Shown piece after piece: positions 2,796 to 3,296 of a DNA stretch of 6,757 nucleotides (positions within the stretch are counted from its first letter, which is position 1; every line of letters begins with the position of its first letter). Both the position numbers and the translations under genes were made by a program. The notes beneath the pieces are model-generated. The model did not search any database. It worked only from the letters and a program-made list of their open reading frames with translations, and was not told the origin of the DNA. This DNA comes from a virus (lineage: Duplodnaviria > Heunggongvirae > Uroviricota > Caudoviricetes), in IMG/VR virus record IMGVR_UViG_2526164604_000021; one strand, given 5' to 3'.

Positions 2796-3296
2796 CTAGC
2801 TTGATATCAACTTGTTTTTGTTTGATGTCATAGTAAAAACATCATTTGTCAGTTCATCCCATTTTTTCGTTCCTTTCATCAGAGCATCAAGGGAGAATGT
2901 AGTTAGTTGCCATCGCTTATTATCAACAAGATTCCCTAATCTTAAGGCTGTTTTTCGAGTTTTTCTTAACTCTTCATGCAGCTCCGTTCTCAGAATATAT
3001 GATTTTTCGAGTTTGAAATTCTTGCGACCAGGCGTCTTATTGCCAGGCTCAGGAAGTGGAAGGCGTGTTTGAATGTCGAGTGGTGGACAGTCATAGAAGT
3101 AAATTCTATAAAGCTCAAGCGGTTCCCTACGTTCTTGTGATTGACGTTTTCCATTAAGATGGGAAAGAACCATTGACCATATTACTTTCATTATGCATTG
3201 CGCAGTCAGTTCATGCTCGGCGAAGTGTTTACGATGCGTAGCATGAACACGCTGCATGAAAAAACCCGCATCAATTAAAATTGCTGCTTTCTTCAT
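2796..3296 (-). CDS. Hypothetical protein, 166 aa, basic; uncharacterised cargo gene in the rexA/rexB position of the immunity region; candidate lysogen-expressed phage-exclusion or toxin-like factor
   Basis: ATG is complement of 3294..3296 and TAG is complement of 2796..2798. It has the same orientation as cI and lies directly downstream of it. G+C is about 39% by manual count, against about 49% in a sampled stretch of cI. I recognise no similarity to RexA, RexB or any named protein. The only overlapping ORF is an antisense one. Confidence 0.65.
   Translation of the reverse strand: MKKAAILIDAGFFMQRVHATHRKHFAEHELTAQCIMKVIWSMVLSHLNGKRQSQERREPLELYRIYFYDCPPLDIQTRLPLPEPGNKTPGRKNFKLEKSYILRTELHEELRKTRKTALRLGNLVDNKRWQLTTFSLDALMKGTKKWDELTNDVFTMTSNKNKLISS

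Follow-up and report, generated by a model that had tools for sequence, protein, structure and literature searches.

Does the immunity region of a lambda-like prophage carry a working defence gene in the place of rexA and rexB, or only what is left of another gene? The question is raised by a 6,757-nucleotide (nt) stretch of viral DNA (Caudoviricetes; IMG/VR record IMGVR_UViG_2526164604_000021), referred to here as the window, in which a 166 amino acid (aa) open reading frame (ORF) follows a lambda-type cI gene. The original prediction, made from the letters of the DNA, took this ORF for an intact accessory gene and a candidate for a defence or toxin-like function. The best explanation, in which high confidence is placed, is that the ORF is a pseudogene fragment, and that the cassette from which it derives would, when intact, specify a lysogen-expressed endoribonuclease throttled by a leader RNA, with a likely role in phage exclusion or a related conflict.

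The ORF extends from ATG to TAG at positions 2796..3296 (− strand) and, as originally described, is on the cI strand with its start 127 nt past cI. It consists of codons 1–152 of a gene for an NYN-domain nuclease, 14 out-of-frame codons and a premature TAG. The intact parent gene is 858 bp (285 codons), and the window ORF represents its 5′ part. Residues 1–152 are identical to the 285 aa protein of phage ev099, and as a protein search gives 7035 database relatives for that protein, the ORF is not a chance reading frame. A match to PHROG 5783 covers only profile positions 1–148 of 246, and truncation was suspected from this partial match.

Alignment of the window with ev099, with phage E212 and with O157 strains places the lesion. 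One A is missing between 2839 and 2840, where GATGATTTT has become GATG-TTTT, and the frame shifts at codon 153. The last 14 residues of the ORF (VFTMTSNKNKLISS) are therefore out of frame and frameshift-derived. The remainder of the NYN gene, native codons ~154–197, continues out of frame at 2706..2838 (−); the stretch between the frameshift and the insertion sequence (IS) reads DIKQKQVDIKLGMDITTLAYEKLVDVIVLVAGDSDFVPAAK in the other frame, and the NYN catalytic motifs encoded there are QKQVDIKLGMDI and GDSDFVPAAK. Homology to the NYN gene stops at 2706 and the end of an IS629/IS1203 element (TGAACCGCCCCGG) starts there (junction 2706/2705). A 333-bp IS-adjacent deletion took away the 3′ end, and the last 88 codons (198–285) are lacking in the window copy. 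Thus the gene, which was thought to have survived intact, carries both a 1-bp deletion at 2839/2840 and an IS truncation at 2706/2705. The AT-richness remarked upon is real, with a G+C content of 39.5% in the ORF, but the contrast with cI is smaller than supposed (46.2% in cI, not 49%); the whole window has 47.5%, and lambda rexA and rexB have 40.2% and 42.5%.

In NYN domains a metal ion is bound by four conserved acidic residues (PMC5499597). The window ORF does not display such a set. Only D9, in the first strand, and D69 are retained in frame; D164, D170, D189, D191, K197–R200, H222 and D224 are out of frame or deleted and are absent from the predicted product. Since the catalytic residues D164 to D224 are missing, the product cannot be an active nuclease, and phage-exclusion activity is not expected from the window copy. 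The 166 aa fragment matches no Pfam family at E-values up to 1, the region that matches the profile (158–205) falling past the frameshift, and nothing in PADLOC-DB v2.0.0 at E-values up to 10. RefSeq already marks the region as fragments or as a pseudogene; the window copy is an ordinary, already annotated remnant. A single-gene defence system at this locus, as first proposed, is thus not borne out: the copy is a remnant, it has no real PADLOC match, and the family has no known defence function.

The window matches a cryptic lambdoid prophage beside tRNA-Thr and proA in E. coli O157:H7. The prophage at that site is CP-933H in EDL933 and Sp1 in Sakai (PMC3355084). Other O157:H7 strains show the gene in different states of decay. 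In ERL04-3476 the same A is missing, the full 3′ end is kept, and the IS lies ~67 bp past the stop codon. F8492 has the complete gene length and the same IS ~67 bp downstream; it is without the lesion of the window and shows a different 1-bp deletion (a G). In TW14359 and most O157:H7 genomes a deletion of ~570 bp leaves a 127 aa ORF. The IS is absent from DEC4E, where a 157-bp deletion extends from gene nucleotide 771 to exactly the IS629 insertion point (L098 3200-3760); this looks like the scar of an IS excision with flanking deletion. The truncated forms in sister strains differ in length (127, 117 and 146 aa). IS629 activity seems to drive the decay of the NYN locus, and the presence of several independent inactivating lesions in one lineage indicates relaxed selection on the gene. 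Frame disruption, which had been named beforehand as a sign of a decaying remnant, is thus found in the window and, independently, in sister strains.

Some part of the NYN gene is found in 275 of 5426 complete E. coli genomes, and 80% or more of it in 74 of these. Of 50 records sampled at even intervals, 35 are of the TW14359 type and retain only the first ~41%. The exact IS junction of the window was found in one of the 5426 genomes, that of O157:H7 strain F6667, where PGAP annotates a partial pseudogene and a 38 aa "NYN domain-containing protein".

The intact 285 aa protein is found in the same slot in ev099, in E212 and, 100% identical, in about 50 Stx2a-converting phages; at 99.9% DNA identity the same sequence is present in more than 100 phage records. 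In ev099 and E212 the gene lies between cI and N. The ev099 protein matches Pfam PF01936 over residues 158–205 with 36.8 bits (gathering threshold 24.2; E-value = 6.8e-9). Nearly all of its relatives are 250–300 aa long and annotated as "NYN domain-containing protein", and among the matches listed all 120 relatives carry PF01936 or are fragments. Twenty positions are invariant in 37 diverse members: D9, R22, H46, D69, R114, K115, R119, W129, Q160, K161, D164, K166, D170, G188, D189, D191, K197, R200, H222 and D224. An AlphaFold2 model of the parent protein (pLDDT 86.8) shows an alpha/beta fold, PIN-like and resembling 2qip. A PDB sequence-profile search with the family gave no match, and NYN structures were found by fold comparison alone. 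NCBIfam gave only a sub-threshold match to the NYN model TIGR00288 (29.6 bits against 178), and PADLOC-DB v2.0.0 gave domain-level matches only, over ~45 residues, to HEC-09 (E-value = 2e-4) and NYN (1.4e-3).

As judged from its sequence, the parent gene is an NYN-type nuclease gene, with a predicted PIN-like, metal-dependent product. The guess of a PIN/NYN-like fold was therefore right for the parent, which passes PF01936, but not for the 166 aa fragment itself. The R-x4-H motif (RVHATH) to which attention had been drawn is not a family feature, H21 being variable among the 37 relatives. A HEPN reading of this motif was rejected both for the variable His and for the predicted fold, which is alpha/beta rather than all-helical. 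A literature search for NYN or PF01936 together with phage, prophage, defence, cI or toxin–antitoxin (TA) found no study of this family. According to a review of the NYN family, most groups are without biochemical data; NYN/LabA proteins elsewhere are tied to RNA processing and regulation (PMC5499597).

The slot can be delimited by comparison of ev099 with lambda. Homology extends across cI and breaks 8 nt beyond the cI stop codon, at lambda position 37219; it is found again from 35826, which is the final base of rexB and corresponds to a point 8 nt past the NYN stop codon. A cassette of 985 bp stands in for 1392 bp with rexA and rexB, and no DNA homology was found between the cassette and lambda 35827–37218. 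These limits show that the cassette exactly swaps out rexA-rexB. The idea that the gene occupies the rexAB slot is thus confirmed by both cassette boundaries. It was also correctly stated that the product is neither RexA nor RexB; no Rex family is matched in Pfam or PHROGs, there is no DNA homology to lambda, and the cassette holds a single gene.

Neighbouring genes were surveyed at 75 IMG/VR loci with an intact gene, where 29 of 38 upstream clusters were scanned, the shortest and least gene-like being omitted. Repressors of the Peptidase_S24 family make up 14 of the 29 distinct upstream neighbours, with 15–60% identity to the lambda-type cI of the window, and stand for ~33 of the 75 loci as read from cluster sizes. 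The recurrence beside cI-like repressors that had been suggested is therefore found. A second frequent site is between the Q antiterminator and the holin of the lysis genes, on the opposite strand. Distant members are found after the repressor of a P22-like Proteus phage and adjoining HigBA on Pseudomonas aeruginosa contigs that resemble plasmids or integrative and conjugative elements (ICEs). In the P2-like Burkholderia phage phiE202 the gene is flanked by a TA pair and int, and in a Streptococcus phage by an XRE-type repressor and int. The cassette behaves as mobile accessory cargo, and its context is consistent with expression in lysogens but is not proof of defence.

Between cI and the ORF, the window also retains the upstream part of the cassette. 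A putative sigma-70-like promoter, TTGACG-17 nt-TAGATT, is situated at 3377..3406 (−). Its −35 hexamer lies within a palindrome, GTTGAC-N6-GTCAAC, at 3389..3406 (−), which may be an operator. A leader hairpin follows at 3307..3368 (−). It is built in three tiers (P1 of 7 bp, P2 of 5–6 bp and P3 of 5 bp, with a 12-nt loop) and ends in U7; it starts ~10 nt past the promoter, ends ~10 nt before the ATG, and is intact in the window (ev099 counterpart, L001:4073-4134). The leader resembles an intrinsic terminator or attenuator, or else a small RNA of ~60 nt. Practically all homologues examined have this arrangement of promoter and hairpin in front of them, irrespective of the genes around. In about 34 of 36 loci with a leader of the window's type, called type A, a TTGAC −35 element lies ~35–45 nt upstream of the hairpin, and from this near-fixed distance transcripts should start at the hairpin base. 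An inverted TTGAC-N4-10-GTCAA pair at the −35 position occurs in 22 of the 36, compared with 78 of 5000 random windows (1.6%).

Type A leaders are found in enterobacterial, Pseudomonas, Halomonas and Acinetobacter loci. In an alignment of 18 distinct sequences, which are related to one another and subject to the usual caveat on that account, 93.2% of cells are paired and 10 of 18 pairs show compensatory change. None of 500 shuffles reaches these pairing values, and structures slid by 1–3 columns pair in 26–44% of cells. A covariance model, R1, was built from this alignment and run on 643 kb. It gave exactly one strong match per locus (37–84 bits), each directly upstream of an NYN start codon and including Pasteurellaceae-type loci not used in building the model. 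The window leader scores 82.7 bits (E-value = 1.8e-20). Lambda gave no match, and nothing else in the 643 kb exceeded 27 bits. The exact hairpin-core pattern occurs 41 times in 2.9 million viral contigs. In 39 of these an NYN gene starts 23–28 nt later; the other two are followed by a decayed NYN copy and by a tRNA gene. The decayed copy, on a Stx1-phage-like contig (L198, ~7400-7520, −), shows an intact leader, a 1-bp loss in a T6 run at codons 12–13 and a large internal deletion. At the other site (L214:3574-3700) the tRNA gene comes directly after the U-run of the hairpin and no NYN gene is present; the site may mark the end of a prophage or result from a deletion.

R1 does not reach two further leader types, B and C. 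Type B is found in Burkholderia, Cupriavidus, Acidovorax, Halomonas, Dyella, Acidobacteria and Elusimicrobia (for example L015:3401-3467, L166:2890-2956, L174:2913-2978 and L161:2917-2982). In the 8-bp outer stem 125 of 136 cells are paired and compensatory changes occur. The internal loop is conserved, with (C/U)AGUA(A/C) facing CGA(N)C, and we take it to resemble the AGUA/GAA loop-E or sarcin-ricin motif. The inner hairpin is variable, often with AUCC in its loop, and a U-tail is present. CUUGAUAAUGG is present in a third type, which is longer and occurs in Bacteroidota and Clostridia. Chromosomal homologues of 44% identity form a large group in Rhodanobacteraceae (L114-L157; Dyella, Rhodanobacter and Frateuria). 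Among the few of these inspected, L114-L118 seem to be without a U-run terminator, upstream of L115 and L118 lies a GC-rich hairpin whose loop is of the CCAUC type, and L135 (Dyella jiangningensis) has a type B leader. With Rfam 15, the only match in the window is the ALIL element in the IS, and no match was found at the leader position in 20 diverse loci; relaxed Rfam searches of the leader gave chance-level matches only (E-values of 3 or more). The possibility that the hairpin is merely the cI terminator was rejected as a full explanation, because loci with an unrelated or divergent gene upstream (the Q slot, plasmids, P2-like and Streptococcus phages) have the hairpin as well and because the cassette's own promoter is upstream of it.

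The history of the locus is most likely as follows. In an ancestor prophage rexA-rexB had been replaced by a self-contained cassette consisting of the promoter, the ~60-nt leader with its U-run, the 285-codon NYN gene and a terminator. IS629 then inserted ~67 bp downstream of the NYN gene. Later, one base was lost at codon 153, and a 333-bp deletion adjacent to the IS removed codons 198–285. In the intact cassette a constitutive or autoregulated promoter would drive synthesis of a short RNA, most transcripts ending at the hairpin and U-run, and read-through would supply a little nuclease mRNA. As loop and bulge nucleotides of the leader are conserved, a protein probably reads this RNA, and most simply it would be the NYN protein. 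The leader RNA may bind the NYN enzyme or be cut by it, with an autoregulatory or antitoxin-like role. The intact cassette would then provide the lysogen with an endoribonuclease that likely excludes other phages or has a related conflict function. Exclusion of other phages from lysogens is plausible from the genomic context.

A more specific form of this proposal, offered tentatively, as it is more doubtful than probable, is an undescribed RNA-gated, single-gene nuclease module of temperate phages and other mobile elements. Excess leader RNA would limit, bind or neutralise the nuclease, much as in type III TA systems but with no repeats, the module would exclude superinfecting phages, and the leader would represent a new RNA motif. 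If so, the module fills the rexAB slot in phages of lambda immunity and the Q-lysis slot in others. The leader motif, in at least three structural variants, would extend over Proteobacteria, Acidobacteria, Elusimicrobia, Bacteroidota and Firmicutes, with an AGUA/GAA loop-E-like internal loop in one variant, and the window would contain a nuclease gene that is dead and, ahead of it, an RNA gene that is still intact.

Several observations weigh against the explanation preferred here. For the intact family, nuclease activity, the RNA target and a role in defence are all inferred. Among NYN candidates only HEC-09, whose relation to this family is at the domain level alone, has been tested for defence, and it protected against no phage tried (bioRxiv 10.1101/2024.01.29.577857). 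The hairpin may simply be a strong terminator that has been retained with the cassette. With regard to the window copy, its 152-residue N-terminal piece may be made and bind something.

Other explanations of the ORF keep a product in play. It might be a functional shortened gene, for instance one whose product acts alone in the lysogen as a defence or toxin factor. In favour of this, its start codon lies 127 nt after cI, the promoter and leader are intact, and residues 1–152 are undamaged. This reading is very improbable. The 14 end residues are frameshifted and the conserved catalytic half is absent, the fragment has no Pfam or PADLOC match, its exact allele is present in 1 of 5426 complete genomes, and the sister truncations of 127, 117 and 146 aa form a pattern of neutral decay and not that of a selected short form. 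Still less credence is given to restoration of the frame, through slippage in transcription or a ribosomal frameshift at the T5 run that the deletion created, and to a resulting longer product with the NYN motifs. That product would end in IS-derived residues after K197, without the invariant R200, G203, H222 and D224. The lesion does lie within GATGTTTTTAC, a short homopolymer, and the downstream frame is open to the IS junction, but no slippery heptamer or stimulatory structure was seen, and intact copies have no such site, which points to a mutation and not to a programmed signal. A programmed frameshift at the T5 run was thus rejected, the site being absent from intact copies and the 3′ end gone in any case.

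It is possible, although unlikely on balance, that RNA and not protein still works at this locus, with the promoter and the ~60-nt hairpin-terminator giving a predicted small RNA in O157:H7, whether or not this RNA has a role. The element is strongly conserved with compensatory changes, and no difference in promoter or hairpin is seen among the O157 alleles examined, although the ORF is broken in at least five ways. However, this identity carries little weight because the O157 alleles are recent and nearly identical everywhere, and the leader RNA may have no function without its nuclease. A slightly more doubtful alternative concerns the intact family, which could be a phage housekeeping RNase that processes, for example, phage or host transcripts to stabilise lysogeny or to time lytic development, and not a defence protein. 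The position of the gene in the cI operon region or beside Q, the ties of NYN/LabA proteins elsewhere to RNA processing or regulation (PMC5499597) and the negative result with HEC-09 all agree with such a role. Yet the gene is dispensable, since lambda and most lambdoid phages are without it; it moves between unrelated elements (HigBA-adjacent plasmid or ICE-like contigs, a P2-like phage and a Streptococcus phage) and lies on the opposite strand in the Q slot, a behaviour that fits accessory cargo.

The IS629/IS1203 element of the window (IS3 family; RefSeq name, IS3-like element, IS1203 family) occupies 1392..2705 (−), its far boundary being 1391/1392. It displays the features of its family, with OrfA (Pfam HTH_Tnp_1) at 2325..2651 (−), OrfB (Pfam rve) at 1438..2328 (−) and a programmed frameshift with its ALIL pseudoknot at 2254..2370 (−; Rfam, 121.5 bits). 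Beyond it, 919..1391 (−) is a lambda-like remnant with a terminator, OL/PL, nutL and the 5′ end of N, 96% identical to ev099 L001:5071-5544. The first 20 codons of N are fused to a 5′-truncated integrase gene (1..921, −; annotated as partial) in an ORF at 866..1111. All that lies between N and int, that is, the recombination and early-left genes down to xis on the ev099 map, is deleted in the window.

The upstream neighbour, cI, is an intact lambda-type gene at 3424..4137 (−). Its 237 aa product carries HTH_3 and Peptidase_S24 domains and is identical to lambda CI at 233 of 237 residues (98%). Past cI, on the opposite strand, are cro, cII, a frameshifted O and a stub of P. The statement that N, O and P had been lost is thus roughly correct, but O is present though frameshifted, and ~21 codons of P and 20 of N are left. 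In an otherwise wrecked prophage, the segment 3424..4438 appears intact, with cI (4 substitutions relative to lambda CI), the PRM/OR region and the cro ORF, which we take to match lambda Cro. Because cI, PRM/OR and cro look intact, O157:H7 strains with this prophage may be immune to phages of lambda immunity.

These results remove a false lead, the supposed intact orphan defence gene being an annotated pseudogene stump in a decaying O157:H7 prophage, and its varied lesions provide a small example of what seems to be IS629-driven decay. The parent is a widespread, uncharacterised gene for a predicted NYN nuclease that replaces rexAB exactly in lambda-like phages, including many Stx2a phages. 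The intact cassette, with a leader RNA that has no Rfam entry, is a lead worth keeping, as it is a clean system, made up of a single gene and a single RNA, that can be studied in a lambda background. From it the role of bacterial NYN nucleases could be learned, and also whether exclusion functions are generally located in the immunity-region slot.

Among known systems, the parent protein shares with NYN proteins (PF01936, LabA-like; 2qip VPA0982 and the MARF1 NYN domain 5yaa) the Asp cluster that includes GDSDF. It is, however, ~100 residues longer than a minimal NYN domain, the second and third core strands each being followed by an insert and the tail being rich in Lys and Arg; only its residues 158–205 match the Pfam profile, and the window copy is without the catalytic half. 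HEC-09, a PADLOC candidate NYN protein in Hma systems proposed as an RNase-type defence, has the NYN motif region in common with the parent (residues 155–200, E-value = 2e-4). This match is at the domain level only, and HEC-09 differs in its helix-turn-helix-like N-terminal region.

The order of promoter, structured noncoding RNA, terminator and endoribonuclease gene that characterises type III TA and abortive-infection loci (ToxIN, AbiQ/AntiQ) is also present in the cassette, and such loci are likewise carried on mobile elements. In contrast to ToxIN and AbiQ, the cassette has a single hairpin that is the terminator itself and no tandem repeat array, and its protein has an NYN fold and not that of ToxN/AbiQ. 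No tandem repeats were found in the window at 2700..3430. As repeats are absent and the protein fold differs, type III TA systems serve as a working analogy and not as a class to which the cassette belongs.

Like BstA and other repressor-adjacent prophage defence genes, the NYN gene is a single accessory gene in the lysogeny module, a position that suggests expression in lysogens. BstA, with its KilA-N domain, is however an unrelated protein, and no defence phenotype is known for the NYN family. The positional counterpart is lambda RexA-RexB, encoded in the same slot (from the cI stop codon to the terminator before OL/PL), on the same strand and with similarly low G+C. The NYN gene has no relation to these in sequence or fold, and consists of one soluble nuclease-type gene where lambda has a sensor and a membrane protein. 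The cassette also has its own promoter and a terminator-like leader, and is not simply co-transcribed with cI.

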